DNA from: a virus | Virus record (IMG/VR): IMGVR_UViG_3300044941_000276 | Span: 41,642-105,641 of that record | Reading direction: 5' to 3' (one strand) | DNA: 64,000 nt | In this document: piece after piece, positions 37,509-56,920 of the stretch | Position numbering within the stretch: the stretch's first letter is position 1 | Layout: every line of letters starts with the position of its first letter | Notes under the pieces: generated by a model | The model's input: only the letters and a program-made list of their open reading frames with translations | Told to the model about the DNA's origin: nothing | The model's database searches: none | Position numbers and translations under genes: made by a program

Positions 37509-38245
37509 ATTACAGATACATCTATCTTATCAGCATCTACTATTGTAAATCGATCCCGATCTATGTGAATTAATTTTAATTCATCTACCTCATAACCGAC
37601 TTTCGTTAATATATGTCGATATATAGATAATTGTATAGAGTATCGGGAATGGTTCGTATTAGGAAGATAGTCAAAAGGAGGTCGCAATTTAAAATTGGTC
37701 TTTTTTTCTTTTCCTGTTTTTTTATCAATATAAGTATCTCTTAGTATAGGCTTTCCAGTTTTATAATCGAGCAAAGCAAGACGATTGGTTTCAAGATTGT
37801 AAGCAAGTACATCACATGTACCCGACACTCTGAGATCTGGATCGTACATGCGCAACTCGGAACATATAATCTTATATCGCCCAGCAAGATGTCTATACAA
37901 CGATATCAATGTTGATCGATACTCTTTTATATCAATACCTTTTACTGGTAAATTAAGGCTCTTATTTTCAAGATATTTATGAACCAATGAACCTTTCTCG
38001 GTAGCTATTTTTGACTTTTTATCCCATTCTTTGATAACTTCTTCTTGAGTCATATTATACTCATCGGCCTTCTTTTTAGACCAGTAATCACGGTCAAAAT
38101 TCTCATAGCGTTTTACTATACTAGTAGCAGATGTTAATTCTACATCGGGTTGAGTAGCTAAGTAATATTTATGATTAACTTCATCAAATATAAGATCCTT
38201 AAATAACTCTTCTATCTCTGCGCGCAGTTTCTTTTTATTTATCAT
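37499..38245 (-). CDS. PD-(D/E)XK exonuclease
   Basis: FDE..H.Y; KG..VH..LE; SE..M; SGT.D; LDYKT; Y..QLS.Y. Confidence 0.85.
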   Translation of the reverse strand: MINKKKLRAEIEELFKDLIFDEVNHKYYLATQPDVELTSATSIVKRYENFDRDYWSKKKADEYNMTQEEVIKEWDKKSKIATEKGSLVHKYLENKSLNLPVKGIDIKEYRSTLISLYRHLAGRYKIICSELRMYDPDLRVSGTCDVLAYNLETNRLALLDYKTGKPILRDTYIDKKTGKEKKTNFKLRPPFDYLPNTNHSRYSIQLSIYRHILTKVGYEVDELKLIHIDRDRFTIVDADKIDVSVIWK

Positions 38246-38423
38246 ATGTTACAGGAATAACTTCTTCAATTGTATAATCGTCATAATCGATACCCAAATC
38301 TTCAAATTTTTTTATAGCTTGTTCTTTCCCCCAAGCTTCTATCAACAAAGTCTCTGTTATAAATCGTCCACGATCATTAAAACGATAATACAGATAATAA
38401 AATATCTTATAAGTTTTCATCAT
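38235..38423 (-). CDS. hypothetical protein
   Basis: ORF track; IEA...E.A motif. Confidence 0.5.
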   Translation of the reverse strand: MMKTYKIFYYLYYRFNDRGRFITETLLIEAWGKEQAIKKFEDLGIDYDDYTIEEVIPVTYDK

Positions 38424-38580
38424 TTCTTGTAAAAGAATAAAGTAAAAATATAATAGAAACCATTAATAATGATAAATCAAGTATACTGATATTTAATCTC
38501 ATTATACTATAAGTAGTATTTATCACTACAAGTAAAAATATAATAGCAGCTAACCAAAATAAATATTTATTTTTCATCAT
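38407..38580 (-). CDS. 57-aa two-TM membrane protein missing from the ORF track
   Basis: Manual translation MMKNKYLFWLAAIIFLLVVINTTYSIMRLNISILDLSLLMVSIIFLLYSFTRNDENL*. Confidence 0.55.
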   Translation of the reverse strand: MMKNKYLFWLAAIIFLLVVINTTYSIMRLNISILDLSLLMVSIIFLLYSFTRNDENL

Positions 38581-38779
38581 CTTTATGTTTTAATCTTCCA
38601 AAACTAATATTGGGCAAAACTCTCATGTCTGTATGAGTCCATTGCCATATCTCGCCAGACTCTTGTATCACAGTATATAGAGTATCGGTCTCTGTTCCAT
38701 ACTCGGTTACTAACCATATCACACCTTCGCCCTTAGGTGTCAAAACATAAACCCTATTTTGAGGTTCAAATATTCTCAT
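38567..38779 (-). CDS. hypothetical protein (V.TPKG.G.......YG.E.D.....GE.W)
   Basis: ORF track; motif seen in small phage proteins. Confidence 0.55.
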   Translation of the reverse strand: MRIFEPQNRVYVLTPKGEGVIWLVTEYGTETDTLYTVIQESGEIWQWTHTDMRVLPNISFGRLKHKDDEK

Positions 38780-39231
38780 TGTATCTTATCTCTGTATTTC
38801 TTTATACGATTACCTTGAAAAAACATATCGGGATTTATCCAAAAAACATCTTTTATTACTGTTGGAGAAATAAATCCATATCGGATCAATTCATCTCTTG
38901 CTTTAGTGTAAGTGTTATAAGATAAATTTTGTTCTTTAAGATAGCGATCTTTATTAATATAAACCCAATCACAACCCTCATCTATTTCAAATATTAACCA
39001 AAGAAAAAGTCTTTGAGAACATGAGGATAGATCGTTTACAATCTTTCTACGTTCACTCGAAACAAATATTTTAGTAAAACGCGTAGCTTCCAACTCTATA
39101 ATCTCTTTTACTAAAACATCATCATCCATCACATAATTTTTTCCTTTTATTTTATTTACAGGAATGGATAAAGAGTTAACAAAAGGATTTTTACCTAATA
39201 AAGATTGATCTATTGATTTATTCTTTTTCAT
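38776..39231 (-). CDS. RepL-like replication/maintenance HTH protein
   Basis: FTKIF; S.NT......ELI..GFI......FWINP..FF.G.R. Confidence 0.7.
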   Translation of the reverse strand: MKKNKSIDQSLLGKNPFVNSLSIPVNKIKGKNYVMDDDVLVKEIIELEATRFTKIFVSSERRKIVNDLSSCSQRLFLWLIFEIDEGCDWVYINKDRYLKEQNLSYNTYTKARDELIRYGFISPTVIKDVFWINPDMFFQGNRIKKYRDKIQ

Positions 39232-39236
39232 TTGTG

Positions 39237-39244
39237 CAAAGCTA
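39237..39244 (-). promoter_or_regulatory. TAnnTTTG -7 element (TAGCTTTG), probably leaderless repL transcript
   Basis: Consensus ends 5 nt before ATG 39231. Confidence 0.6.
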
Positions 39245-39289
39245 ACACATATATGTATATTATCATATAGTTATCATATAGATATTATC

Positions 39290-39645
39290 AAAATTTTGTG
39301 AGTTTTATAAAATACTATACATCTCACAAATGAGCGGTCACAAAAAATAGGGTCACAAAAAATTGTGAAATCGAAAAAGTCAAAAAATTGCTTAATCAGA
39401 TATATGAGAGTAACAAAAAATGACAAAAAAAATTCAAAAAAGAACCGTCTTATAGCTTTAAGGGTATACTCGAGTAGGTCAATTTTTGGTCAAAAAACGA
39501 TTGATGAGCTATATAAAAGTAAACTTTTCTCTTTTTTTCTACTCACAAAAAATTGTGAGAAAAATGTGAGATGGGTTCTCTAATGTTGTTTAAAGTACAT
39601 CAAACGAATTTTTTTATTTTTTTATTTTTTTATTTTTTGTTTTTT
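39290..39645. repeat. TCACAA(AAAA)TTGTGA repeats plus T-tract; candidate replication origin at the strand switch
   Basis: Palindromes at 39353-39368 and 39542-39559, half-sites near 39296, 39323, 39338; long T-tract ~39609-39645. Confidence 0.55.
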
Positions 39646-39715
39646 GTTGAGGGAATATTTGGTCTGTACCCCCATCCTGCCCCGCTTGGGTTTGCAACTA
39701 AACACCATAAATTAT

Positions 39716-40006
39716 ATGAAATCTTACGAATTTGAATCCGGTGCTGAGTTCACCGGAGGCTCGCTCTTAGGGCGTATTGAAGTACAAGTTGAAACCTCGA
39801 CGAAAGGGTCAGGTCTTAACAAAGGCAAGTGGCGCAATACTATAAAGCCGGTTGAAGTAATCCTCACAAATAAGAAGACTGGGAAGAAAACGGCGTCTAT
39901 CCGTGAGGCGTTCAATTCAAAGACTAAATTGGACGCCGGCACCTACACAGTAGGTGTCTATGAAGCGGACATCAACAACAAATTGACAGCCTACCTGGCT
40001 TTGTAA
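39716..40006 (+). CDS. first early gene, hypothetical (96 aa)
   Basis: ATG 39716 with A/T-rich leader (MKSYEFESG...). Confidence 0.7.
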   Translation: MKSYEFESGAEFTGGSLLGRIEVQVETSTKGSGLNKGKWRNTIKPVEVILTNKKTGKKTASIREAFNSKTKLDAGTYTVGVYEADINNKLTAYLAL

Positions 40007-40357
40007 GTCGGGTAGGTCCCCCTTCGGGGGTAAGTGTGCCTCAATCATTAGCCACATGATGAGAGGCACAACCATACACTCGCCACACGGTGTATGGTAA
40101 GTAGCAAGTGTGGGCATATTTTCATTGTCTTGGTTGAAAATATGCTTCCCCAGATATCTGGGAGTGGGTTTTTTTAAAAAATCCAAGACATCCACCCCTC
40201 AGTCCGAGTGAGGGAGAGTGTGACCAAGTTGTTGTAACCATCCGACAACTTGGCACACGAGGTGGATTATGTAGGCAAATTGAAGACGCCTAATCTCGGA
40301 ACGGGGTAAGCCGAAAACTCATAAAAAGAGTAGGCGTAAATTGAAAACGACTAGTTT
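40007..40357 (+). ncRNA. structured non-coding segment (hairpins, pseudoknots, AAUUGAA loops)
   Basis: Back-to-back inverted repeats, e.g. CCCC-TTCG-GGGG, ACCATACAC/GTGTATGGT, GCATATTTTCA/TGAAAATATGC. Confidence 0.55.
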
Positions 40358-40615
40358 ATGACCAGGACTATCATATCGGAGGTGAACACAGCTCACCTTC
40401 ATATGATCAAAGAAAGATTTGATCATGAGTACCCGCTACCAAACGGAGGGTACGTACTATATTCGTTTTGCTCGTCGACATCAAAAGATATTGAAGCTTT
40501 AATCATTGTAGTAAAGAAAGAAAAGCTCATCAAATCGAGAGCTTTTCTTTTCACGGGGGAGGTTCTCCAATTGGAAAATTTCCTCGCTAAACATGGGATT
40601 GAAATATCCCTTTAG
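40358..40615 (+). CDS. early hypothetical protein
   Basis: ORF track; ATG follows an AAUUGAAA hairpin. Confidence 0.55.
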   Translation: MTRTIISEVNTAHLHMIKERFDHEYPLPNGGYVLYSFCSSTSKDIEALIIVVKKEKLIKSRAFLFTGEVLQLENFLAKHGIEISL

Positions 40616-40619
40616 CGAG

Positions 40620-41265
40620 GTCTCCCCTTTTTTCCCCTTGCTGCCATTTAATGGGTAAAACGGCAAGGGGGTTTTAAAGCCCTGTCAGGCGAAATTGAAG
40701 ATGACAGGGCATCTTTCTCCCTACCTTGGGTAAGTAGGGAGATATTTTATACCCATCGTCGAGAGAGGATTCGACCCGTGTAAGCGAAGTGCTCTGGCCG
40801 GTCGCAGCACGGGTTGTTATCCATTTTTTACTCCTCACCTTGAGCAAGTGAGGGTGGGTGTTTGCTCACGTCCCTCAATCGGACTGCAAATGTAACGTCG
40901 TTATTTGATGGTTACTCAAGCCGGTTCGATGAGGGACACTTATTTGACTAAGACGGGGTCAGATAAGTAAAAATTAAACCGTCTCTGCCGAAAAGCTCGC
41001 GACGCGTTTTGCTCGCTGAGCATTGGCAGATTCCCCGAAAGGGGAAATTAGCGCCCCTTAAGTGGGGCTTTAGCTTGTCCGTACCATACCGGACTTAAAC
41101 ATAGTATGGTAAGCCTTTGTACTAGGCTTTGATTGAGGGGTAAAACCCAAGAGAAGGTACAAAGACCGTCACCTAGCATCGCTTTTTATGGCTTTAATCA
41201 TGCTATAGGTAGAATCAGAAGACGGCGCGCACAGGGTTCTTTATGAGCTTCTTACCTGTGCAAAA
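40620..41265 (+). ncRNA. structured non-coding segment upstream of tRNA-Arg
   Basis: More than 10 consecutive stems, two H-type pseudoknots, no ORF. Confidence 0.55.
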
Positions 41266-41271
41266 TAAGTT

Positions 41272-41345
41272 ACTCCCATAGCTCAACTGGATAGAGCAAC
41301 TGCCTTCTAAGCAGTAGGTTGCAAGTTCGAATCTTGCTAGGGGTA
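41272..41345 (+). tRNA. tRNA-Arg (UCU)
   Basis: Cloverleaf; anticodon arm ACTGC-CTTCTAA-GCAGT; T arm GCAAG-TTCGAAT-CTTGC; one C-A mismatch in the acceptor; no encoded CCA. Confidence 0.92.
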
Positions 41346-41387
41346 CGATTAAAAAACCTAATCACAATTAAAAAAACAAAAAACGTT

Positions 41388-41804
41388 ATGAACAAGAACA
41401 CATTCGTTTTTGTGATCACCATGTTGGTGGTCACAATCTTTTTGGCTGCCGCTGCGGTAGCCAAGCCCCGCCCGAAATGGGTGCGGGTTAGCCACTCTAT
41501 CTTATCAACCGTTGACCGTATCGACCGAGATACGGTTGCAATTAAGCTCACCTTCGTCCGCTTTGACGGCGAAGGTCGTCCTACTATTGGTCAAAATTTG
41601 GGTCACTTTATTATAGAAGTGGCCTTCACAGTCGACCGCTCAGAGGCGGTACGCATTTTAAACGGCGGGCAGTTGTCCGCCAACGGGCATGTCCTCGCCC
41701 GTATAAGCGAGGGCACCAAAATAATTCGTGACCCTGAGGGTCGCGAAATCCGCCGTATGAAAGCGGCGGATATCTGCAAGATCCTTTATGGGTCTTCAGA
41801 GTAA
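41388..41804 (+). CDS. early secreted/membrane protein
   Basis: Likely start MNKNTFVFVITMLVVTIFLAAAAVA (signal peptide). Confidence 0.65.
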   Translation: MNKNTFVFVITMLVVTIFLAAAAVAKPRPKWVRVSHSILSTVDRIDRDTVAIKLTFVRFDGEGRPTIGQNLGHFIIEVAFTVDRSEAVRILNGGQLSANGHVLARISEGTKIIRDPEGREIRRMKAADICKILYGSSE

Positions 41805-41809
41805 AAAAG

Positions 41810-41843
41810 ACAAGGCGGTTTCTATGAAATCGCCTTGTTTTTT
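41810..41843 (+). terminator. rho-independent terminator
   Basis: ACAAGGCGGTTTC-TAT-GAAATCGCCTTGT-TTTTT. Confidence 0.85.
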
Positions 41844-41844
41844 A

Positions 41845-42941
41845 TCAGGGTGAGAATCCCTGACAAGCCTGTGGGGCTCATGTCTTGCTAAGGCATTGTT
41901 GCACTTGTATAGGGGAAGAGTAGTAAAGTCGAGTAATATTGCTGCGTTAGGTAATACTATAAGCATTATGAAAGAGGAATATCTATTTTGACTATATGGC
42001 GCAATGTCTGATCAAGCATTAGTGCGGACTCAAAAATCAGGCAGTGGTACAGCCTTAATCTGTACAAATCTTTGTTTATCAAAGATTAACAAGGAAATAA
42101 CCAATACCTTGTCCTAACTATGGGTAAAATAGTAGTCGTCCTTTTTTTAAATGTATTTTTTAAACCTGTACTATCGTCCCCGGATAGTACATCAATAGTG
42201 GCACAAGGAGGCCGCGAGGGGCGAAGACATATGGTCTTCAATGTTTAACAAATCGTGGTATTGAGCTAGACCACGTTGAAATAGTTAGCTCGCCTGTCCA
42301 CAAACACGGAGGTGTGACAGGTTCATGGGAGAAGAAGAGGCCGTCAATATTAAACGACGTGTCTCTAAAGAGAAAAGGGTTTCCGTGTTGCGACTGAATC
42401 TCATGTCGCACAAGTTAACGACTTGACCCGAGATATATGTAGCTCTATACATTAACAATAACTACGTCAACAATAGATGTAGGGAGTGGTGTATATCTAT
42501 ATATGTACGATTTGAGACTGGACAACTCAAATCAATATGTACAATGTCCAATAGCCGTACGCCACAACGGCTATGATATCTTAAGATATAGGTCGATATT
42601 AAAAGACCTTATCTTAGATATAATTATTTTAGTCAAGGGCATGAATCGGGGTTGACATCCCGATAAGGGTATGGAGTAAAGACCATACTTGAAAACGTCA
42701 GCGTCCGATAATCAAATCAACAATAGATTTGAGGAGGACGTTAAGGCGAATTGAAGTCGCCGTCATTTTTCTATCCTGTACGGATAGTTGTCAAAGTCGA
42801 CCATGGGACTAAGACGTAAAAACAGAAAGAAGCCTAAGTCGTGCGATGCTTCGCATCGATATGGTGAGCGCTCATGGTTATAGTAGGAGACTACGACAAT
42901 GTCGTATGTCGTTATTACTACTGAATAAGTCCGAAAGGACT
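41845..42941 (+). ncRNA. ~1.1-kb ORF-free structured region (candidate large ncRNA or ncRNA array)
   Basis: Dense hairpins, long-range stems (GCCTG/CAGGC, GACCATGGG/CTCATGGTT), pseudoknots; ends at a hammerhead. Confidence 0.5.
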
Positions 42942-42997
42942 CTGTCGTCTATGTGCGTGGCTGTGCATAGGCCTGATGAGGGGTTAACCCGAAACAG
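42942..42997 (+). ncRNA. type III hammerhead ribozyme
   Basis: CUG-UC | stem I 42947-56/42963-72 | CUGAUGA 42973-79 | stem II GGG..CCC | GAAA 42991-94 | CAG; GUC cleavage after 42946. Confidence 0.85.
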
Positions 42998-43087
42998 TAT
43001 TGCCCGCGTAAAATAAGACTGCGTTAAGGTCTTGTGAGTGATGCGTGCCCACTCAGAACGGCATTAATTTTTTATCCAAAATTGAAG

Positions 43088-44212
43088 ATGGATAGAAAAT
43101 TAATTAACGCCCTAGAATGCGAAAAGTATATACAGAAAAAACTTTTCGCGTTCAACGCCGGCAAGACGCTGGCTAGGGCGTGGAACGCGGGGGAAAATTG
43201 TCTTCTTACCGGACCTGGTGGGTACGGTAAGACGGACGGAGCTGCTTTGTTCTTTGAGTATCTCAAAGAACAAGGGGCTTTGTCTGACGAACGTCCATAC
43301 GTATTGGCGTTCGGACAGGGCATGACTGAGGAAAGGTTATTCGCTGGGTTGGATATCAAACGCTTTCAGAATGAAGGCGAATTGGTGTACAACCTGAAGA
43401 AGGCCTTCGTATCCTTCGAATATGTAATATTCGAGGAAATGTTCGACGCATTTCCTGGGGTATTGCTTATTCTGAAGGATGTTCTTCAGTCTAAGAGCGT
43501 ACGGTTAGGCGACACCGTATTTCCCTTGCGAACTAAATTTATAGTCGCCTGTACCAACCGTAGCAATGAGGAAGTCGCTACGGATAGAAGTACATGGGCT
43601 CTTTTAGAAAGATTCGTCTTTCAAAAAGAGGTAACCTGGACTTCGTGGGAAAAGTCCGACTACCTCTCGGCTTTCGAGGCAGCCACAGGCCAGAAAGCTG
43701 ATTCCGTAATGGAGGCTGTGGCAAGAATAGCTGCTGCCAGCAGCAAAGGTGAGATGAAGATCTCGCCTCGTACTGCTGGTAAAGGTCTTAAGGCAGTAAA
43801 ACAAAACGGTAACGACATTACCGTTTTGGAAGACATTCTCGGCTTCGATAAGAAGTCGGTAAGAGAAGTCTTCACTGCTATGGAAGGCATAGCAGCAGAC
43901 AAGGCTCAACGTGACCACGTAGCTGCGGTGGTCGCGTTATGTAAGCAGACAGCAGCTACTTCTTCGAATTCCGCCATTAAATTGGCGGTTGCCGCTAAAC
44001 GAGTTCACGTAGAACTCGAAAAACTTAGTGGAATTCAACGTCGTGATGCGAACGTTGAATTGTTCGAGGAAAGCATCATTGTCATAGAGAATCTGAGGGA
44101 GTCTCTATGGCAAAGAGCCAAGTCCCTTATTAACAAGCCACCAGTTGGCAGCTTGGCAGAGTTTATACAAAACTCTAGCACAAGCTCATTCGACTGGAGC
44201 TTGTTGAGATAA
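43088..44212 (+). CDS. MoxR/RavA-like AAA+ ATPase
   Basis: Walker A GPGGYGKT, Walker B VIFEE, ACTN, ALLERF, ISPR; likely start MDRK at 43088. Confidence 0.85.
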   Translation: MDRKLINALECEKYIQKKLFAFNAGKTLARAWNAGENCLLTGPGGYGKTDGAALFFEYLKEQGALSDERPYVLAFGQGMTEERLFAGLDIKRFQNEGELVYNLKKAFVSFEYVIFEEMFDAFPGVLLILKDVLQSKSVRLGDTVFPLRTKFIVACTNRSNEEVATDRSTWALLERFVFQKEVTWTSWEKSDYLSAFEAATGQKADSVMEAVARIAAASSKGEMKISPRTAGKGLKAVKQNGNDITVLEDILGFDKKSVREVFTAMEGIAADKAQRDHVAAVVALCKQTAATSSNSAIKLAVAAKRVHVELEKLSGIQRRDANVELFEESIIVIENLRESLWQRAKSLINKPPVGSLAEFIQNSSTSSFDWSLLR

Positions 44213-44290
44213 TCGTTAACCCAATCTCTTGGGTTTGACTTGCATATAAGGTTAATCGTAAAAGCAAGGTAGTTATAATTTTATGGGGTT

Positions 44291-45520
44291 ATGAAAAAAA
44301 GAACCATACCCCACCATCTGTACGTTGAGCCTACGCGGCGAGACGTACAAGAAAGATTTAAGGAGTTAGGTTTTGATAAAACCTACTCTTATGATCTCGT
44401 ACGGGATATTGCTAATGCGATGTCTCACGTACAGAATGGTGGGAAAGTCACTGACGCAATGACCAACGTCAGTGATTGGGTTCTTCCTTCTGACTATAAG
44501 TCAGAGAGGGAATATCAAAGAGCACTCTCGTATCACGAGAATGTTCAAAGATTTATTTCTTCTCTTGACTTTGACAAGTTCAGTGGCAATACTCCGCTTG
44601 CAAAAGCGGCAAGTGTTGTAGCTGCACTGTCTAGTCAAGAAGGGGGACAAGGCGAGGAGGGTGATGGTCAACCCTTGCCAATCTTCCGAGGTTCGTCAGA
44701 ATCTATGGAAGAAAAGGCTAAAAAGTTGGAAGAGGCAGTTGATCAAACTGTCGAGGCCAATAAAAGCCTTGCGAGGTACATCATCAATCCTGATGAGGCC
44801 TCCCCAGAGGTGGCTCTCGCGACCTTGAACAGCGAGAATCGGGACCTCTTAGCCAAGTTAGCGCTACTTGGTGACAGGGGTAAGATACGTTCACAGCGCA
44901 CTTCTCCCACAAACAAACTCACTCAAATGAGTGAGTATTCACAGGTGGGTCGTGTGAATAATATGAGTAGTATGTTTCTCCCAACTTTCGGGTATAAATT
45001 TGCGACCAAGCAATTGGTTGTGAAAGAACCCGAACAATCAACGAGACAAACCCTTGTCTTATTGATTGACAACAGCGGTTCTATGGACGAGACCGACAAA
45101 TTAAGTTGGGTCAAAGCCATAGTAGTTAACAGATTAGACGCTGTTAGTAAGGGAGAAGCTGAGTTGTATATCGGTTGGTTTGAATGTTCTCTTGATGAAG
45201 AGAACATTGTTAAAATTGCCAACAAAAAAGAAGCCATAGCTTTTTTACAAGAAGGCTTCTTGGGTAATTTTAACGGGGGAAAAACTGATATACAACGGGC
45301 CATTGAACAAGTTTGCGAGGGAATCAAACTTGGAAGGCTCGGTAATTATTCCCTCAACGGAGTTAAGCCTCAAATCGTTGTAATGAACGATGGGCAAGAC
45401 TTTGTTGATAGCAATTATAAACCCAGTGTTGTGACTCACGGGTTTATCTTAGGGCGTGACAATGACGGAATGAAGTCAATGATCGCCAATTGCGGAGGTC
45501 ACTATGAGAGATTTTTATAA
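44291..45520 (+). CDS. vWA-domain protein (ViaA-like partner)
   Basis: MIDAS LIDNSGSM, GG.TDI, MNDG. Confidence 0.85.
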   Translation: MKKRTIPHHLYVEPTRRDVQERFKELGFDKTYSYDLVRDIANAMSHVQNGGKVTDAMTNVSDWVLPSDYKSEREYQRALSYHENVQRFISSLDFDKFSGNTPLAKAASVVAALSSQEGGQGEEGDGQPLPIFRGSSESMEEKAKKLEEAVDQTVEANKSLARYIINPDEASPEVALATLNSENRDLLAKLALLGDRGKIRSQRTSPTNKLTQMSEYSQVGRVNNMSSMFLPTFGYKFATKQLVVKEPEQSTRQTLVLLIDNSGSMDETDKLSWVKAIVVNRLDAVSKGEAELYIGWFECSLDEENIVKIANKKEAIAFLQEGFLGNFNGGKTDIQRAIEQVCEGIKLGRLGNYSLNGVKPQIVVMNDGQDFVDSNYKPSVVTHGFILGRDNDGMKSMIANCGGHYERFL

Positions 45521-45727
45521 TCTTTCTTTTCCCTATGCTCTACTAATAGGGATGTAAAACGATAGTAGCTGGAAGAAAACTACCCTACCTCAGGGTTATG
45601 TGACTATAAGGGTTAATGGGTGCGCTACCATTAGAAATGTCACGCATATAAAAATCCTGCCATTGCAGGTTGAAGCACAAAACCTTACCCAGTTTTGTGT
45701 GTATATAACTCATGGGTAATAAAAGAC

Positions 45728-45973
45728 ATGGATAACTTTTTTCTTGAGTTATTTATTATAACTCAACAAGAAAGAATTCAATCCGAGGGATTATTTTCTA
45801 TCCTTTGCCGAATTGAAGAAGGCAAGGATATGAAGAAAATCCCTTTCCATTCTCAAAAAGAGATGGAAGATTTCCTCTGGTTAAACAGAGGGAATTATCT
45901 ATTCATCTCTTTGGAAGAGGCTGGGCTATTAGTGTCCACCTCTCCATTTGAGAATGGATTGGGAGTGAATTGA
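45728..45973 (+). CDS. small early hypothetical protein (start 45728 or 45830)
   Basis: ORF track; internal ATG at the foot of an AAUUGAAG hairpin. Confidence 0.45.
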   Translation: MDNFFLELFIITQQERIQSEGLFSILCRIEEGKDMKKIPFHSQKEMEDFLWLNRGNYLFISLEEAGLLVSTSPFENGLGVN

Positions 45974-46157
45974 TTGGGGACCACCTGCACTAATCATCGG
46001 TGGGATATAAATAGAGGATTTTTTCTAACCATTCCATTTTGTAATATTACAAATAAAGGTTGAATCTGCGACAGGCATAGGGATATGTGCGAGTAATAGC
46101 AGAAGAGGAAGCCGAAAAGCTAAGTGAGTAGGCAATAACTATCCAAAAAATTGAAGA

Positions 46158-46475
46158 ATGGATATGATCAAGTTTTTATTTCCTCAGGTAGCCAAGTCTA
46201 CCTTTGGAAAAAAGATGTTTAATCGCATAGCTCCTATCGTAGAAAGACTATGCGATGAAACATCGATGATCGCAATGCCCTCAATCGCGATGTTTCTTAC
46301 TTACCATCCCGGAGCTTCTGCTCCGCAGCAGATGGTATTTAATTATCTTGCAGAAGTCGCACTGCAAGGCAACTGGAGAGTATTTGTTGCGACGTATGGG
46401 GAACTCATTTCTCCTTCTGACCCATTGGCTGTATTGGGTCAAGACGGAAGAAAACAGTTCTTCCGACCAATGTGA
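46158..46475 (+). CDS. early hypothetical protein
   Basis: ORF track; ATG inside an AAUUGAAG hairpin. Confidence 0.65.
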   Translation: MDMIKFLFPQVAKSTFGKKMFNRIAPIVERLCDETSMIAMPSIAMFLTYHPGASAPQQMVFNYLAEVALQGNWRVFVATYGELISPSDPLAVLGQDGRKQFFRPM

Positions 46476-46822
46476 AGCTTTACGTCCTTAACTCTGCGGT
46501 AATGCCAGAAGATGGTTATTATCGCAGAGTTAAGATAAGTAGAGAGAAGGCTTCCGAGATACTCAATACAGCCACAGAAATTGTATCTTCTGTTGGGTAT
46601 CCGGAAGTTTGTCAAATATTACATGAAATATCAGGAGTTGTTGTTCCTCTTGATATTGAAAAGCGAGTAACAACATTTACTGAAGACGAGTGTACTATAT
46701 TAGTATGTAAACTTGTCTTCAGGGAAAAAGCAGAACGAAAAGGAGTTAATCGTCATACCGACATTAACGAATATGAGTTCTGCTTAGTTCATTATAAAAA
46801 AAATAACCCTTTTATCAAATAA
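46472..46822 (+). CDS. DUF1874 / STIV B116 / YddF family protein (AcrIII-1-like)
   Basis: LYVLNSA.MP..G.Y....IS.E.A..IL.....SSVGY....IL....G..VP...R......LV.KL..R; catalytic GH reads GY. Confidence 0.72.
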   Translation: MKLYVLNSAVMPEDGYYRRVKISREKASEILNTATEIVSSVGYPEVCQILHEISGVVVPLDIEKRVTTFTEDECTILVCKLVFREKAERKGVNRHTDINEYEFCLVHYKKNNPFIK

Positions 46823-46843
46823 ATAATAAAAGGGTTATTTTTT
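46798..46843 (+). terminator. rho-independent terminator
   Basis: AAAAAATAACCCTTTTAT ... ATAAAAGGGTTATTTTTT. Confidence 0.75.
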
Positions 46844-46876
46844 AATTCATTCAAATCATAATCGTTTATCATTCAT

Positions 46877-47071
46877 ATGGAATTATATCCTATAGTAGAA
46901 TGTTCAACAAAAGAAGGAGCGTCGCTTATTGTTTCTTTCTTTTGTGAAAAAGGTTTTGACTTCTACTTTGTATTTACAGGTAATAAGAAACCTTATCTTG
47001 TAGTTACAAATAAGGAAGGTCTAAAAGCTTTTGAGCAATGGAATCATTCATTAGCAACAATTGTTCATTAG
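46877..47071 (+). CDS. small hypothetical protein
   Basis: ORF track. Confidence 0.55.
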   Translation: MELYPIVECSTKEGASLIVSFFCEKGFDFYFVFTGNKKPYLVVTNKEGLKAFEQWNHSLATIVH

Positions 47072-47122
47072 CAGGTTTCATTAACAACTTATTCACTTTT
47101 CATTAGCAATTTTCATTAGCAA
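47047..47122 (+). repeat. five copies of TTCATTA(G/A)CA
   Basis: Direct repeats just upstream of ATG 47125. Confidence 0.7.
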
Positions 47123-47124
47123 TT

Positions 47125-47337
47125 ATGTATCAAGTCACAAAAAATATAAACGGAGTCTATGCTGAGGCTACGTTTAAAACAAGAGAAGAGGCCTTGCGCC
47201 AAGCCACACGTTGGTTCGATTCCATGAACACTGATATTTCAGATTTATGCGGATCGTTCATTAGCCGTATTGTTAGCGGTAAGAATATAACTTATAGATT
47301 TCAAAAAGCATCCTTAACAATAAGACATGAAAAATGA
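47125..47337 (+). CDS. small hypothetical protein
   Basis: ORF track; F.TREEA motif. Confidence 0.6.
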   Translation: MYQVTKNINGVYAEATFKTREEALRQATRWFDSMNTDISDLCGSFISRIVSGKNITYRFQKASLTIRHEK

Positions 47338-47557
47338 AATCTATGGGTCTTTTTCGTCAATGACATTGACGGAAGAGGGAAAGTTGATTATAAATTTTCT
47401 ATCGGACAATAACGAAAAGTTTATTGTTGAAATAGAATCTTTAATAAAAGAAGATGGTAGCGGAAGAAAATTTTTAATTAATCATAAACATGTAAACTCT
47501 ATTAGCGGCTATGTTGACTTTGCTACTAATAAAGGTTACATAAAAATTAAAAATTAA
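47327..47557 (+). CDS. small hypothetical protein (EDGSG..F motif)
   Basis: ORF track. Confidence 0.6.
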   Translation: MKNEIYGSFSSMTLTEEGKLIINFLSDNNEKFIVEIESLIKEDGSGRKFLINHKHVNSISGYVDFATNKGYIKIKN

Positions 47558-47562
47558 ATTTT

Positions 47563-47570
47563 TACTTTTG
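47563..47570 (+). promoter_or_regulatory. TAnnTTTG -7 element (TACTTTTG) upstream of the tRNA-like/tRNA cluster
   Basis: Consensus match in an intergenic region. Confidence 0.5.
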
Positions 47571-47687
47571 TTGTTATTATAACAGCAAAGGTTTATTTGC
47601 GAACTCTTAACTCAATAAGTTAAACTAATTGACTTATAAAGAGTTACAAGTTCGTCTTGTAGAGCTCACCATCAAAAATCAGATTTT

Positions 47688-47828
47688 AGAGGTGGCGCTG
47701 GATGCGCCTTGGATGCTGGCAGGCGCGCGACTGTGCAACATCGGTACTGGCAAGAAGCTGAACGACGGTTCAGTGGATGTTAGCAAAGGGCTGCTCCCTT
47801 GAGGCCGGTTCGATTCCGGCCACCTCTA
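47688..47828 (+). ncRNA. 141-nt tRNA-like RNA (acceptor and T arm, multi-branched core)
   Basis: AGAGGTG/CACCTCT-A; GCCGG-TTCGATT-CCGGC; no canonical anticodon arm. Confidence 0.7.
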
Positions 47829-47842
47829 CTTAAACAAACAAA

Positions 47843-47916
47843 GGGTCCATAGCTCAGCCGGTTAGAGCATCTGACTCATAATCAGGGGGTCGCAAGTTCG
47901 AGCCCTGCTGGACCCA
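47843..47916 (+). tRNA. tRNA with CAU anticodon (probably Ile2/lysidine; Met possible)
   Basis: GGGTCCA/TGGACCC; TCTGA-CTCATAA-TCAGG; TTCGAG T loop. Confidence 0.9.
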
Positions 47917-47957
47917 CAATCGTTCATTCACAAAAACCGCGACTGAGGTATCAGCAA

Positions 47958-48203
47958 ATGGATGAAAGTTCCTTTACAATTATGTATATGATAACGGTAG
48001 AAGTTTATGATTGTGAAAAAGGCACTAATCGCTATGCGATAAAAGCTGCCAACTTCGAAGAAGCTGTTGAAAGATATGAAGATATCAAATCACGCATCAC
48101 CGTAAACTGGACTCGCCATCCAGCAATCACCGAAGAAATTAAACACCTCGATTGTACATACGATTCTTTTAATGAAGGTTGTATAATCATGTCTCGTGTT
48201 TAA
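47958..48203 (+). CDS. small hypothetical protein
   Basis: ORF track. Confidence 0.55.
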   Translation: MDESSFTIMYMITVEVYDCEKGTNRYAIKAANFEEAVERYEDIKSRITVNWTRHPAITEEIKHLDCTYDSFNEGCIIMSRV

Positions 48204-48211
48204 AAATATTA

Positions 48212-48314
48212 CCATCTATCGTCTAAGTAAGACGATTTGACAATCGCTTATAACAAAAATTGAAGATTATAAGCAATTGTTAAATAAATACAGGTTCGTA
48301 TCCTGTTAGATGGT
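48212..48314 (+). ncRNA. tRNA scaffold whose anticodon arm is replaced by an 18-bp AAUUGAAGA hairpin
   Basis: CCATCTA/TAGATGG; D arm GTCT-AAGTA-AGAC; long arm 48235-48285; T arm ACAGG-TTCGTAT-CCTGT. Confidence 0.75.
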
Positions 48315-48433
48315 CAATTAATCACCTGAGTTTAAGAGATTCACCCTAAGGTAACTGACGTTAAACTTTTTGTCAGGAGAATAAGGTTATGACATAAGTC
48401 ATAGGTGATTTAAGATTTTAAATTATTTATCGT

Positions 48434-48655
48434 ATGAAAGTTTACGTTCATAGGTACCAATTTGAAGGAGTATTAATCGAATTAATATTGCCTCATAACA
48501 AGCCTATTGAAGTTGGTGATGCGATTTCAATTGAAGAAATTGAAATTGAACCAATAAGAATAGAGCACGCAATCTTAGATGCGGTTGTCGTATATTTTTC
48601 TTATAGAAGCAAAGAAAGAAGTGTAATCGTTGACAAATCAAATCTTGAAAAGTAA
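48434..48655 (+). CDS. hypothetical protein
   Basis: ORF track. Confidence 0.55.
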   Translation: MKVYVHRYQFEGVLIELILPHNKPIEVGDAISIEEIEIEPIRIEHAILDAVVVYFSYRSKERSVIVDKSNLEK

Positions 48656-48906
48656 TGGAAGAAATAATCTTGGCGTTGTTAGACACTTGTCTAATCAGAG
48701 AACGCGACCCGCGACAATTTCCAATATCAGAAGACACTATGTATCGGTATAATATGCCTGAGCAATTATGCGATACTATTGTATCTATTGGTAAATATGT
48801 TGAACCGCAAACAGAAGCAGATCGCTATCGTGAAGCTGCAATTGGTAAAACATATATCGTTGACATTTATCAATTATATAATACAATCATTTCTCATGGA
48901 ATTTAA
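48655..48906 (+). CDS. hypothetical protein
   Basis: ORF track; coupled TAATG. Confidence 0.55.
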   Translation: MEEIILALLDTCLIRERDPRQFPISEDTMYRYNMPEQLCDTIVSIGKYVEPQTEADRYREAAIGKTYIVDIYQLYNTIISHGI

Positions 48907-49303
48907 AGTTTTATTCACATCACCTAACGGTTACGCTGTCGATTTAAAAAAACAATCGTTTGGTTATAACCAATATGAGTTTGCCAAACGTTATGTAAAT
49001 CCAATGGAACTCGATCCCCGTGTGGTTTTAGATTACATAGATGAGTTTAAAACCGATATTATCATAGACGTATGTGTAAGTAAAATTAAAGGATGTCTTT
49101 CATCTGTATTTTATGACACTACGTTTGTAAAAGTAATAGTTCCATCAGGAACATTGCGTCGGTATGTAAGTCTCATCCCTGTTGTCGAAAAACATTATGA
49201 TCAAATAACCAGTATAACTTGGAGATACCAAATCAACGATGACAATATATTAGATTCATGGTCGTCAGATGGTTGTCCTTTATACTGGAATCCCATTAAA
49301 TAA
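48896..49303 (+). CDS. hypothetical protein
   Basis: Likely start MEFKVLF at 48896. Confidence 0.55.
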   Translation: MEFKVLFTSPNGYAVDLKKQSFGYNQYEFAKRYVNPMELDPRVVLDYIDEFKTDIIIDVCVSKIKGCLSSVFYDTTFVKVIVPSGTLRRYVSLIPVVEKHYDQITSITWRYQINDDNILDSWSSDGCPLYWNPIK

Positions 49304-49331
49304 TCATTCATTCACCTTAAATTTAAAAACC

Positions 49332-49931
49332 ATGTACAAGATCATCTCGGTCGTTTCAAAAAATTCCTTAATTGAAACAGATTATAGAAAAAACATAATC
49401 ACTAAAGAAATTAAAAAGAGAGAGTCGATCATTGCAAACGAAAACCCTTATTGGGTTAACGTATCGTTATATATGGTCGTCGCCAATCTTAAAAGTTATC
49501 CAAAGCGATGGTATTATGTTGTAGATGAAGAAGGTCGGTATAACATTGCTGTTGCTGACAACGTGTCTAAAGCAACTCCTAACATACCATCGTGGGTTAT
49601 TGACGTTTGGTTAAAAGATAACAATGTTCAATTTAATGTTACTTTTGATGAACTTGAACAATTAAACTATGAAGTAGCAAAAGAAGATAATGTTCAATCA
49701 TCAAATTGCTTGGAGGAGGTTGTAGTAACAAAAGAACATTTTGAAGTTATTCAATTAACTAAAAGTAATAACTTTATATTGAGACACATCAAAAAAGGAC
49801 TGATAGTTATACTTGAAAAAAAACATCATAAGAAGTTTTTTGAAGGTTTAAAATTTCAAGTAGAAAAAGAAACTTGGTCCCGATATGGTGATGTTTTTGT
49901 AGTAAGACCGTTCTCTGTTGTAATTTTGTAA
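49332..49931 (+). CDS. hypothetical protein
   Basis: Likely start MYKIIS at 49332. Confidence 0.6.
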   Translation: MYKIISVVSKNSLIETDYRKNIITKEIKKRESIIANENPYWVNVSLYMVVANLKSYPKRWYYVVDEEGRYNIAVADNVSKATPNIPSWVIDVWLKDNNVQFNVTFDELEQLNYEVAKEDNVQSSNCLEEVVVTKEHFEVIQLTKSNNFILRHIKKGLIVILEKKHHKKFFEGLKFQVEKETWSRYGDVFVVRPFSVVIL

Positions 49932-49935
49932 TATC

Positions 49936-49965
49936 AGTACGCCTCTTGAACAGAGGCGTACTTTA
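49936..49965 (+). terminator. hairpin/terminator
   Basis: AGTACGCCTCT-TGAAC-AGAGGCGTACT-TT. Confidence 0.65.
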
Positions 49966-49979
49966 AATCAGTCAAAAAA

Positions 49980-50690
49980 ATGAAAAAGATTCGTAAAAAC
50001 AAAGAACTTTTTGAATTATTTCAAAACAATAAATTCAAAAATAAAAATATAGATTATATTCAAATGCTCATTGATAGGTATCGGTCGATAGTTAATCCAG
50101 TATTCAAATTAGGTAGTTATGATTTTAATATAAATATATCATATCAGTTTTTAGACAGTCGAGATATTAGAACAATAAAATTATTAGTCGAATCATTTGA
50201 AAAAGAAATTAATCGAGTATATGATGATATTAAAAAAAGATATTATCAAGATATACTCGACTGGGGTAATCAATACAAATCGCCAAGATGGAATTTAGAA
50301 AATTTATACGCAATGGCTGATTATATATCAACTATATCTCAGGAAGAATTTAATATAAGCGCCCCTCTCAATTATGATATAAAACACATCAAAGATGTAA
50401 AAGTAAAAGATGTTATTGGTCATTGTGTAATAATCGATGATCAATTTAATTCTTTTCTTACTCAAAATAATTTTGATTTTCATCGATGGTGTGAAAACTT
50501 TACTGGTTTATCAATACACTGCCCAGAATGGATTTGGTGTTTTGGTTCACAATGGGCTAATACAGATAATACACCAATGGGCGCTGCTATAAGAATACTT
50601 TGGCTTATTGAGTGCGGTTTACCTAATAATTGGGAAGCACAAATGAACAATCAGGCACCTTTGTGTTACGAACAATTTTATGACATATGA
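49980..50690 (+). CDS. hypothetical protein; C-terminal domain paralogous to 50687..51097
   Basis: VIGHC...EW.WCF..QWA..DNTP.GAA.RI.WLI..GLP.NW. Confidence 0.65.
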   Translation: MKKIRKNKELFELFQNNKFKNKNIDYIQMLIDRYRSIVNPVFKLGSYDFNINISYQFLDSRDIRTIKLLVESFEKEINRVYDDIKKRYYQDILDWGNQYKSPRWNLENLYAMADYISTISQEEFNISAPLNYDIKHIKDVKVKDVIGHCVIIDDQFNSFLTQNNFDFHRWCENFTGLSIHCPEWIWCFGSQWANTDNTPMGAAIRILWLIECGLPNNWEAQMNNQAPLCYEQFYDI

Positions 50691-55753: not shown

Positions 55754-56920
55754 ATGACAAAGATAAATCTCACAGAACTACAAAATTATTTTAATGAACG
55801 CATGTATGGTTTTGATGCCAAAATATTTGGTATTGCTTGGAATAGTAATCAAAATGTATTACTGACAGGTCCAGGTGGATATGGTAAAACATACAGCGCT
55901 CAATTATTTTATGATTTTTTAGTACATAAAGGTATATTTCCAGAAGGTAGTAAACCTTTCGTTCAATCATTAAATCCCGATACTACCACTGAAAAGATCT
56001 TTGGCGGTACTAACATTAAAGAATTTACCGAAAACGGAGCTATGGTTTATAATTGCCATAATAGCTTTGCTAACGCGCCTTTTGTTATCTTTGAGGAGTT
56101 TCTTGACGCACCATCATCTTCTTTGATGGCTCTTAAAGATGCTCTTACTTCTGGATATGTCAGAGATGGTCTTTATACCTATGAGGTAAAAACAAAGATG
56201 ATAATTGCTTGTACTAATCTTTCAGCAGATGAATTTGCGGAAGATGATGCTACACAAGCTTTATTAGAGCGTTTTAGATTTCAAATGGTTGTACGATGGA
56301 ACAGTCATACAGAAGACGATTATATAAAGTCCTATGAAATAGCAACTGGTAATAAAGGAGACAATATCATTGTTAAAGCAGTAGCCAATGCGGCAGCTGC
56401 TTCTTACGGTGTAGGTGGAGATCGTCCAGTAAGTCCTCGTACTTATATGACAGCGGTTGAAGCTTGTAAAGGATGTGATAAAGATATAGATCCTTTGACT
56501 CCGTTGTATTATATGGATTATCCTGGTGGGTTCAAACCAGCAGCTGTTAAAACTGCTAGCGCTAATCTTGCAGCTTTAAGAAAAGTTATGGAAGATCTTG
56601 AAAGATTAGCCAATTATCAAAGCATGTGGGATACTTATAAAGAGAACTTTAAGACTACGGCTAAAAATATTAACGAAGAAAACTTAATCAAGTTATATAA
56701 TATGGCCGCTAAACTTAAAGAAACTTTAAGCGAGGTCTCGCTTATTAAAGTTACAGATAACGCTTTACCTAACTATCGTAAACTTCTTAGTAGCTATAAA
56801 AGTTTATATACTAGTTGGTATGAGTTTATCGCAAATAAAGTCAAAGAAGACCCATCAATTACTAACGAAAATCTTTTAAAATTATCCAATAGTAGTGTTG
56901 AAAGATATGAATTCAATTGA
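55754..56920 (+). CDS. MoxR/RavA-like AAA+ ATPase (paralog 2)
   Basis: GPGGYGKT; VIFEE; IACTN; ALLERF; VSPR. Confidence 0.85.
   Translation: MTKINLTELQNYFNERMYGFDAKIFGIAWNSNQNVLLTGPGGYGKTYSAQLFYDFLVHKGIFPEGSKPFVQSLNPDTTTEKIFGGTNIKEFTENGAMVYNCHNSFANAPFVIFEEFLDAPSSSLMALKDALTSGYVRDGLYTYEVKTKMIIACTNLSADEFAEDDATQALLERFRFQMVVRWNSHTEDDYIKSYEIATGNKGDNIIVKAVANAAAASYGVGGDRPVSPRTYMTAVEACKGCDKDIDPLTPLYYMDYPGGFKPAAVKTASANLAALRKVMEDLERLANYQSMWDTYKENFKTTAKNINEENLIKLYNMAAKLKETLSEVSLIKVTDNALPNYRKLLSSYKSLYTSWYEFIANKVKEDPSITNENLLKLSNSSVERYEFN

Follow-up and report, generated by a model that had tools for sequence, protein, structure and literature searches.

Hairpins with free stems and a constant loop, probably a new recognition tag controlling early messages in one clade of crAss-like phages

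Within the coat operators of the RNA phages MS2, PP7 and Qbeta, the start codon lies in the 3' arm of a hairpin in which a few loop bases matter and the stem sequence is free, and binding of one protein shuts translation. Similar traits are found in a family of hairpins in the early region of a crAss-like phage, which we describe from a 64-kb stretch of DNA (referred to as the window), the right-hand part of the 105.6-kb virus record IMGVR_UViG_3300044941_000276 (71% complete according to CheckV). Seven solid hairpins, all on the + strand between 40.2 and 48.3 kb, combine unrelated stems with a common AAUUGAAGA loop; they are probably a new recognition tag controlling early messages. A start codon within the hairpin, a sequence-specific loop and a free stem come together in hairpins E and G (Table 1), at the MoxR genes of related phages and at a second gene of the relative L201. 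The RNA-phage operators, however, are single-copy elements with loops of 4-6 nt and a known binder, whereas here seven copies with loops of 7-14 nt are present in a double-stranded DNA phage. Moreover, copies stand on noncoding RNA, on a scaffold resembling a transfer RNA (tRNA) and inside an open reading frame (ORF), and the binder is only proposed.

One loop motif on many hairpins, some at initiation regions and others on noncoding RNA, is also the arrangement of CsrA/RsmE and the RNAs CsrB/RsmZ, and an operator of this type was among the options offered in the preliminary description of this stretch. CsrA/RsmE sites are defined by GGA, which is absent from the core found here, and CsrA is a global regulator of the host that occurs mostly outside Bacteroidota. 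CsrB and RsmZ are multi-hairpin sponges, whereas the present copies are scattered and no such sponge RNA is seen. What we keep of this option is its logic, i.e., operator loops at start codons combined with decoy copies on noncoding RNA. A purine-rich tetramer (GAAG here, GGAG in the targets of T4 RegB) that marks the initiation regions of some early messages, and could time their shut-off, is a further parallel; yet RegB sites are the Shine-Dalgarno sequence itself and do not require a flanking stem, and a RegB-like gene was not found here.

The boxB hairpin of the lambda nut sites likewise presents GAAGA in the loop of an early phage transcript, for recognition by a peptide. There, a GNRA-like loop of 5 nt on a 5-bp stem occurs once per early operon beside boxA, none of which holds here. 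The DUF805b motif (RF02914) resembles our hairpins in its small size, its covarying stem, its conserved purine-rich loop and its position close to start codons in phages of Bacteroidota, but it has a 4-bp stem, and neither its loop (GGAAGCCGAAAA) nor its tail (AGAGUAGGC) is shared by the hairpins. It is widespread, stands at a fixed distance of 19-23 nt from the AUG and never contains it, whereas the AAUWGAAGA hairpin occurs in one small clade; the seven hairpins lie outside both DUF805b matches of the window and are thus neighbours, not members. The promoters of the N4 virion RNA polymerase, finally, are likewise free-stem hairpins, and the phage, which injects a polymerase of its own, carries them in its early region. 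With their 5-7-bp stem, 3-nt loop, conserved flanks and fixed downstream start they act as DNA, whereas the evidence assembled here points to RNA.

All eight sequences listed in the preliminary description are indeed present at their positions on the + strand, and seven of them stand as solid hairpins. The eighth, hairpin B, is probably not a true family member because its stem has an internal G-A mismatch, its loop reads GAAA instead of GAAG, and the stem is gone in a sister phage of 96% identity (L001/G001), where AAATTGAAAA is retained. Its sequence is that of the A-rich spacer usual after DUF805b motifs, which here separates DUF805b from the ATG at 40358.

Between 40000 and 48600, ATTGAAR occurs 14 times on the + strand, nine times enclosed by a stem of at least 5 bp. 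Dinucleotide shuffles (n = 1000) yielded 3.0 +/- 1.7 occurrences and 0.76 +/- 0.90 in stems, and not one of the 1000 matched the observation; the enrichment in hairpins that the preliminary description had proposed to count, per strand and against shuffled sequence, is therefore present on the + strand. The - strand of this interval carries two occurrences, neither in a hairpin, and the remaining 55 kb of the window hold 20 (+) and 17 (-), with weak stems around three and four of them, respectively. A covariance model, R1, was seeded with nine hairpins, excluding C, E, G and H. Across the whole window and both strands, its top four non-seed matches are these four hairpins (21.6-16.6 bits, with noise beginning at 16.4 bits), whereas hairpin B is missed. 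Matches are confined to one 8-kb early block here; in the 64-kb record of the sister phage, which retains all seven hairpins, the seven matches all fall within the equivalent 8.5-kb block.

In minimum free energy (MFE) folds, the motif occupies the apical loop of each copy. Hairpins C, E, F and H fold strongly (z -3.5 to -5.9; energies in Table 1), while A, D and G are weak when folded alone (-4 to -8 kcal/mol, z about -0.4 to -1.3). At its minimum, the conserved core comprises AUUGAAG, and hairpin D has no more than this; the usual form is AAAUUGAAGA, and the invariant loop columns read A A U. G A A G A; the loops extend from 7 nt in D to 14 nt in C. None of about 45 other listed gene starts on the + strand carries the motif, and a generic ribosome-binding site was rejected for this reason. 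From 38000 to 50000, no Rfam model matched any hairpin at E <= 1; at E <= 10, searched over 42880-43110, hairpin E is overlapped by chance-level matches only (Rota_CRE at 16 bits, mir-95 and LPR69). The other Rfam matches between 38000 and 50000 are the hatchet ribozyme, tRNAs, DUF805b and weak chance matches elsewhere. In the full-text literature, we found no report tying early genes of crAss-like phages to hairpin signals, or hatchet ribozymes to crAss-like phages.

The copies differ in their placement relative to genes. In hairpin E, the ATG of the MoxR gene begins at the final loop base and continues into the 3' arm, so that the first start codon of a conserved MoxR-vWA operon (43088..45520, +) lies within the hairpin; an A-to-G change in the sister phage converts one of its pairs to a U-G wobble. 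Hairpin G stands 5 nt 3' of a DUF805b motif and presents the ATG of ORF 46158-46475 at the junction of loop and 3' arm; it is kept in the sister phage. Hairpin F lies inside an 81-codon ORF (45728-45973), where AUU GAA GAA encodes Ile-Glu-Glu, and an in-frame ATG is found at its 3' foot (45830). The ATG in the 3' arm of hairpin C starts a frame of just 10 codons. This hairpin is preceded by two terminator-like hairpins and is kept in the sister phage with a loop change from GGCGAA to AGCAGA. Hairpin A, 8 nt 5' of the other DUF805b motif, is not followed by an ORF, and its stem is lengthened to 7 bp in the sister phage (TATAGGC/GCCTATA). Hairpin D, identical in both phages, is located within a noncoding stretch of about 900 nt that extends from the hatchet to the hammerhead ribozyme, and hairpin H replaces the anticodon arm of a tRNA-like cloverleaf.

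More distant relatives were reached through the MoxR-like ATPase. Nine metagenome contigs with 41-54% identity in this protein were retrieved by protein homology and not by hairpin search, and the hairpins at their MoxR starts are therefore not an artefact of such a search. In nucleotide alignments, these contigs match the window only in part of the hatchet ribozyme. Nevertheless, in all eight relatives read upstream of the gene (L197, L199, L200, L201, L202, L206, L207, and L208) the MoxR ATG is located in the 3' arm of a hairpin. The loop of these hairpins is AAAUAGAAGA(C/A), one base off the form AAAUUGAAGA found here, and their stems are tctcata/tatgaga, atccata/tatggat or tccataa/ttatgga, as compared with tatcca/tggata in the window. 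In L201, a second gene starts in a hairpin of the same kind. The small ORF 3' of vWA likewise carries an internal motif hairpin at aligned Ile-Glu-Glu codons in our phage (hairpin F), L208 and L202, built on three different stems and with the loop AUAGAAGA in the latter two, and the L201 homologue of this ORF begins at a AUAGAAGA-loop hairpin. Furthermore, the relatives have a hairpin whose loop contains GAUAGAAGAG right at the 5' edge of the hatchet; the stem of this hairpin comprises 12 bp in L206 and L208 and is shorter or imperfect in L197 and L199.

Over the whole family, 95% of the stem cells are paired and all seven pairs (7/7) have changed on both sides; none of 500 shuffles was as good, and slid registers gave 27-47% paired cells. 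Covariation of orthologous stems in relatives, a check that the preliminary description had put forward, is thus seen in these pair counts. In 80 loci of phages whose MoxR is 24-43% identical, R1 found no match, and the MoxR starts of these phages are not in such hairpins. With the element missing there, its distribution places it in one small clade of crAss-like phages. Nothing closer was found in the GTDB genomes, GenBank phages contained no close relative by megablast or tblastn, and a hatchet-derived 17-mer gave only a chance match in IMG/VR. The relatives have only one to three hairpin copies per 10-20 kb.

The element most likely acts as RNA. This is favoured by the ribozyme 5' of the MoxR hairpin, by the copy that forms an arm of a tRNA-like RNA, by the intragenic copies and by the G-U pairs in the stems, which contain six G-U cells against one A-C. 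Three substitutions in the sister phage also fit pairing of the + strand as RNA, two of them making G-U pairs (in the stem of hairpin E and in the D stem of the tRNA-like RNA) and one turning a U-G of hammerhead stem I into U-A. The earlier interpretation of a constant loop on varying stems as a single-stranded recognition site in RNA is borne out by this context, by the covariation at orthologous sites and by lineage-wide variants of the loop. Nine loop positions are invariant across two lineages. At the tenth, this phage and its sister have U in all seven copies and the other lineage has A in every copy, a difference that spans two orthologous sites, the MoxR start and the internal site of the small ORF. 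Being uniform within genomes and changed in concert between lineages, the loop suggests a trans-acting reader. An antisense RNA as partner was rejected because the complement CTTCAAT (CTTCTAT in relatives) is displayed in no loop or noncoding RNA, its one copy, at 42236, lying within a stem; a protein is therefore the likelier reader. Loop-loop kissing through AAUU was discarded as well, since AAUAG of the relatives is not palindromic.

The reading we prefer, held tentatively and at somewhat less than even confidence, is that the hairpins constitute a protein-recognised operator tag on early messenger RNAs and noncoding RNAs of this one clade. Each hairpin would be a stem of arbitrary sequence that holds A-A-U-(U/A)-G-A-A-G-A single-stranded, and a sequence-specific trans-acting protein, of the phage or the host, would read the loop. 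Where the start codon lies in the 3' arm (the MoxR-vWA operon and ORF 46158), protein binding and the stem would occlude initiation as in the coat operators of RNA phages, and the MoxR genes of the relatives and the L201 gene would be covered in the same way. Copies on noncoding early RNA (A, C, D, and the tRNA-like H) may compete for the factor or be handled by it. The hairpins, the conservation of their loops, the covariation of their stems, their placement on start codons and their RNA-level context are observed directly, and from them we infer both that a protein partner exists and that it represses rather than activates or protects.

Several observations weigh against this operator tag. 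In the window, a clear gene has its start codon in E and G only, which makes operators a minority of the copies; C opens no more than the 10-codon frame, F stands within a gene, and an ORF is missing at A, D and H. Weak folding (-4 to -8 kcal/mol, z about -0.4 to -1.8) is shared by A, D and G with the hairpins of the relatives. Some rows of the covariation count were selected for folding, and plain coding sequence probably accounts for one seed row (L208 13867). Uniformity of the loop within genomes could partly stem from recent duplication. Finally, 30 early and middle ORFs revealed no RNA-binding or nuclease domain in Pfam and PHROGs.

Two small ORFs deserve mention in this respect. ORF 46502-46822 has a sub-threshold match to the STIV B116-like family, which binds nucleic acid. 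It is kept beside MoxR-vWA in all relatives at about 40% identity and, among the conserved neighbours, is the only one with a hint of nucleic-acid binding. A 26-codon ORF at 42803-42883, 42 nt 3' of hairpin D, encodes a very basic peptide (MGLRRKNRKKPK...) that could be an arginine-rich RNA-binding peptide or merely part of a structured RNA; in the sister phage it differs by one synonymous change, and the relatives yielded no counterpart.

Table 1. Coordinates of the hairpins and of neighbouring features in the window
Feature	Position	Strand	Description
Hairpin A	40272..40292	+	TAGGC / AAATTGAAGAC / GCCTA; first copy; R1 seed, 30.7 bits
Hairpin B (doubtful)	40331..40353	+	TAGGCGT / AAATTGAAA / ACGACTA; internal G-A mismatch; -4.7 kcal/mol
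Hairpin C	40679..40710	+	9-bp GC-rich stem, loop GGCGAAATTGAAGA; -16.7 kcal/mol, z -3.5; R1 non-seed, 16.6 bits
Hairpin D	42745..42761	+	GGCGA / ATTGAAG / TCGCC; minimal 7-nt core
Hairpin E	43063..43104	+	16-bp A/U-rich stem, loop AAATTGAAGA; -17.6 kcal/mol, z -5.3; R1 non-seed, 21.6 bits
Hairpin F	45799..45830	+	bulged 10-bp stem, loop GAATTGAAGAA; -15.6 kcal/mol, z -4.4
Hairpin G	46140..46164	+	TATCCA / AAAAATTGAAGAA / TGGATA; R1 non-seed, 19.7 bits
Hairpin H	48235..48285	+	18-bp stem with one C-A mismatch, loop CAAAAATTGAAGA; -15.3 kcal/mol, z -5.9; R1 non-seed, 18.1 bits
MoxR-like AAA+ ATPase	43088-44212	+	Pfam bpMoxR/AAA_5
vWA protein	44291-45520	+	Pfam VWA_2
Hatchet ribozyme	41841..42042	+	Rfam RF02678, 70.3 bits (gathering 51)
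Candidate type III hammerhead ribozyme	42942..42997	+	66 nt 5' of hairpin E; predicted cleavage after C42946
tRNA-like cloverleaf	48211..48314	+	hairpin H replaces the anticodon arm; MFE -35.1 kcal/mol, z -7.25, 0/200 shuffles
DUF805b motif, copy 1	40301..40336	+	Rfam RF02914, 36.1 bits (gathering 35.6); between hairpins A and B
DUF805b-like motif, copy 2	46102..46134	+	RF02914, 32.1 bits (below gathering 35.6), E 3e-6; directly 5' of hairpin G

The closest rival to the operator tag, in our estimate rather unlikely, is a processing or decay signal, with the loop as the target of a sequence-specific endoribonuclease (a host enzyme similar to RNase E/G, or a phage enzyme similar to T4 RegB). A cut would remove the 5' arm and thereby free the start codon on a short leader or destroy the initiation region, i.e., an early shut-off, and it would trim the noncoding RNAs. 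All RNA-level evidence fits this equally well, and the spread of copies over leaders, an ORF and noncoding RNA suits a cleavage tag better than an operator. The region is rich in RNA processing, with a hatchet, a hammerhead, two tRNAs and tRNA-like RNAs, and after cleavage the new 5' end would be 1-15 nt away from the AUG in hairpins E, G and F. AA|AUU and AA|AUA fit the preference of RNase E for U two bases past the cut, and the ten loop bases AAAUUGAAGA are also those with which the annotated 16S ribosomal RNA (rRNA) of E. coli begins, at a 5' end made by RNase G. On the other hand, no nuclease gene was recognised in the window with Pfam and PHROGs, cutting hairpin H in its loop would break apart an elaborate tRNA-like RNA, and the loop of the relatives (AUAGAAGA) departs from the 16S sequence. 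The likeness is, furthermore, to E. coli, and the 16S end of the presumed Bacteroidota host may differ. That the loop mimics the 16S rRNA 5' terminus, and so draws the host nuclease maturing this end or an assembly factor of the small subunit, is given very little credence. If it were true, cleavage would unmask start codons or the copies would titrate the factor and disturb ribosome production of the host. It would be a new viral route into ribosome biogenesis, with early expression in crAss-like phages programmed by ribozyme plus tag. A factor-free start of translation, in which the stem keeps an A- or purine-rich stretch open before the AUG as a landing site for ribosomes in structured early RNA, appears unlikely. 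It would suit gene starts without Shine-Dalgarno sequence, and phages of Bacteroidota do set other small structures at fixed distance from start codons, such as DUF805b, two copies of which adjoin our hairpins. An open A-rich site, however, needs neither invariant loop positions nor their concerted change between lineages. GAAGA and AUG are -1 to +11 nt apart, an ORF is missing at three or four copies, and one copy lies within a gene; in hairpin E, the 16-bp stem keeps the AUG paired, and the device would be used by only two to four of roughly 60 genes.

The remaining explanations take up further options of the preliminary description, and none of them fares well. Hairpins extruded as single strands might be promoters or start sites for a virion-packaged RNA polymerase, as in N4, giving nearly leaderless early messages. 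The copies are limited to the early block and to its transcribed strand, the rightward region opens with hairpin A, and terminator-like hairpins precede hairpin C. In the crAss-like phage phi14:2, the virion RNA polymerase transcribes denatured DNA in vitro, and the early transcripts have no common upstream motif while noncoding early regions are highly transcribed (bioRxiv 10.1101/2020.03.07.982082); such promoters would answer the question raised by this missing motif. Hairpin H, however, is an internal arm of a tRNA-like fold and must be transcribed through, and the MoxR hairpin lies 30-66 nt 3' of a co-transcribed ribozyme that cleaves at its own 5' end, so that it stays on the downstream RNA. 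In the relatives, the hairpin 5' of the hatchet abuts the cleavage site, F-type copies lie within a conserved ORF, and copies are few. The loops far exceed 3 nt, and on the template strand each G-U pair would become an A-C mismatch. We therefore regard hairpin promoters as quite improbable. Still less probability is given to sites of the boxB type, read by an arginine-rich peptide for passing the terminator-like hairpins of the region. GAAGA in the loop, the density of those terminator-like hairpins and the basic peptide ORF past hairpin D speak for it. The loops, however, are not GNRA-like pentaloops, the seven copies include some on start codons or in an ORF, no boxA-like partner and no shared flanking box appear in the anchored alignment, and the peptide ORF is backed by a single synonymous difference and lacks a counterpart in relatives. 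Just as improbable are decoys for a host defence that reads RNA loops, be it as mimics of the 5' handle of CRISPR RNAs (crRNAs), i.e., RNA anti-CRISPRs, or, beyond that description, of anticodon loops offered to an anticodon nuclease. AUUGAAG does resemble the 8-nt handle of some type I-B/III crRNAs, U-NGA-A resembles the anticodon loop for Ser, the variable base taking the wobble position, and one copy sits on a tRNA-like scaffold. Known RNA anti-CRISPRs, by contrast, reproduce entire repeats, in which the handle lies 3' of the hairpin, whereas here the motif is in the loop and the stems are unrelated; moreover, the loops measure 10-13 nt as opposed to 7, and the placement on start codons and within a gene would go unexplained.

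Early-gene control in crAss-like phages is little known, phi14:2 being the single studied case. A short mutable RNA tag would link the MoxR-vWA early operon, swapped self-cleaving ribozymes, and noncoding and tRNA-like early RNAs. The 9-nt loop with its natural U/A variant offers a handle for finding the reader protein or nuclease, and allows asking whether the timing of early translation in hosts without Shine-Dalgarno initiation is set by ribozyme cleavage and hairpin opening. The element joins a growing set of small structured elements at gene starts of Bacteroidota phages; if it is merely a local operator, it makes a modest addition to the known RNA motifs.

The phage of the window is crAss-like, as it encodes a P22-type portal and a protein of 1453 aa that belongs by its match to the Crassvirus muzzle family (Pfam). 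Its leftward structural genes extend to about 39.2 kb, and rightward genes start near 39.7 kb. Shine-Dalgarno sequences are absent from its gene starts, which fits a Bacteroidota host, although this host is presumed only; promoters of the Bacteroidota host type (TTTG...TAnnTTTG) were not found within 39-49 kb. The gene order MoxR, vWA, small ORF and B116-like ORF is kept in L197, L201, L202, and L208. A second, diverged pair of MoxR-like ATPase and vWA protein is encoded at 55754-58280, with 34-42% identity to the MoxR of the relatives, and no motif hairpin is present at the start of this MoxR-like gene.

Self-cleaving ribozymes are predicted just 5' of the operon in both lineages. The hatchet of the window has an insertion of about 130 nt in its variable arm, and the sister phage is without the stretch that holds this hatchet, position 41840 joining 42154. 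In L197, L201, L202, L207, and L208, a compact hatchet of 75 nt is located 30 nt 5' of the hairpin with the MoxR start codon (Rfam 51-56 bits), and L199, L200, and L206 have the same sequence upstream of MoxR as these hatchet-bearing relatives. The candidate hammerhead, read by hand, has a complete core (CUGAUGA, GAA, A15.1-U16.1, GUC) with stems I, II and III of 10, 3 and 4 bp, while Rfam gives a weak permuted match (16.5 bits, E 0.6); a G-to-A change in the sister phage turns a U-G pair of stem I into U-A. It occupies the place that the hatchet has in the relatives, before the same MoxR-vWA operon, and this looks like a non-homologous swap of self-cleaving ribozymes. Ribozymes of both kinds cut near their own 5' end. 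Cleavage would therefore free the MoxR message, with the ribozyme serving as leader, from a longer precursor, and no promoter would be needed at the hairpin.

Along with two tRNAs, the hairpin region contains tRNA-like RNAs. The cloverleaf around hairpin H has an acceptor stem with 7/8 bp, a D-like arm and a T-like arm (ACAGG TTCGTAT CCTGT); the sister phage departs from it solely by a C-to-T change in the D stem, which keeps a G-U pair. Neither ARAGORN nor the Rfam tRNA model calls it. At 47688-47831, directly 5' of tRNA-Met, a GC-rich tRNA-like RNA of 144 nt shows an 8-bp acceptor stem, a canonical T arm (GGCCGGTTCGATTCCGGCC) and an insertion of about 70 nt; Rfam gives a weak tmRNA match (19.9 bits) and ARAGORN no call. 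The sister phage has a third tRNA match (35.8 bits) about 170 nt 5' of its tRNA-Met, roughly where this element would be expected.

DUF805b was found 19-23 nt 5' of an ATG in about 100 viral loci, in which its stem covaries. A recurring cassette consists of a strong terminator hairpin with a U-run, DUF805b at once, an A/T-rich spacer of about 20 nt, and the ATG; it is seen in the window (40301-40336 and 46102-46134), in the sister phage (6990-7030 and 7620-7665) and in L089 (6000-7160). As the terminator abuts DUF805b, the motif must either overlap a promoter or lie in read-through RNA. The approximately 3 kb from 40007 to 43060 have two plausible ORFs, many stable hairpins and a G+C content above the rest of the phage, and recall the highly transcribed noncoding early regions of phi14:2. 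Further upstream, between the leftward structural and the rightward early genes, repeated palindromic TCACAAAAAATTGTGA-like sites at 39340-39370 and 39540-39562 look like operator sites for a DNA-binding regulator.

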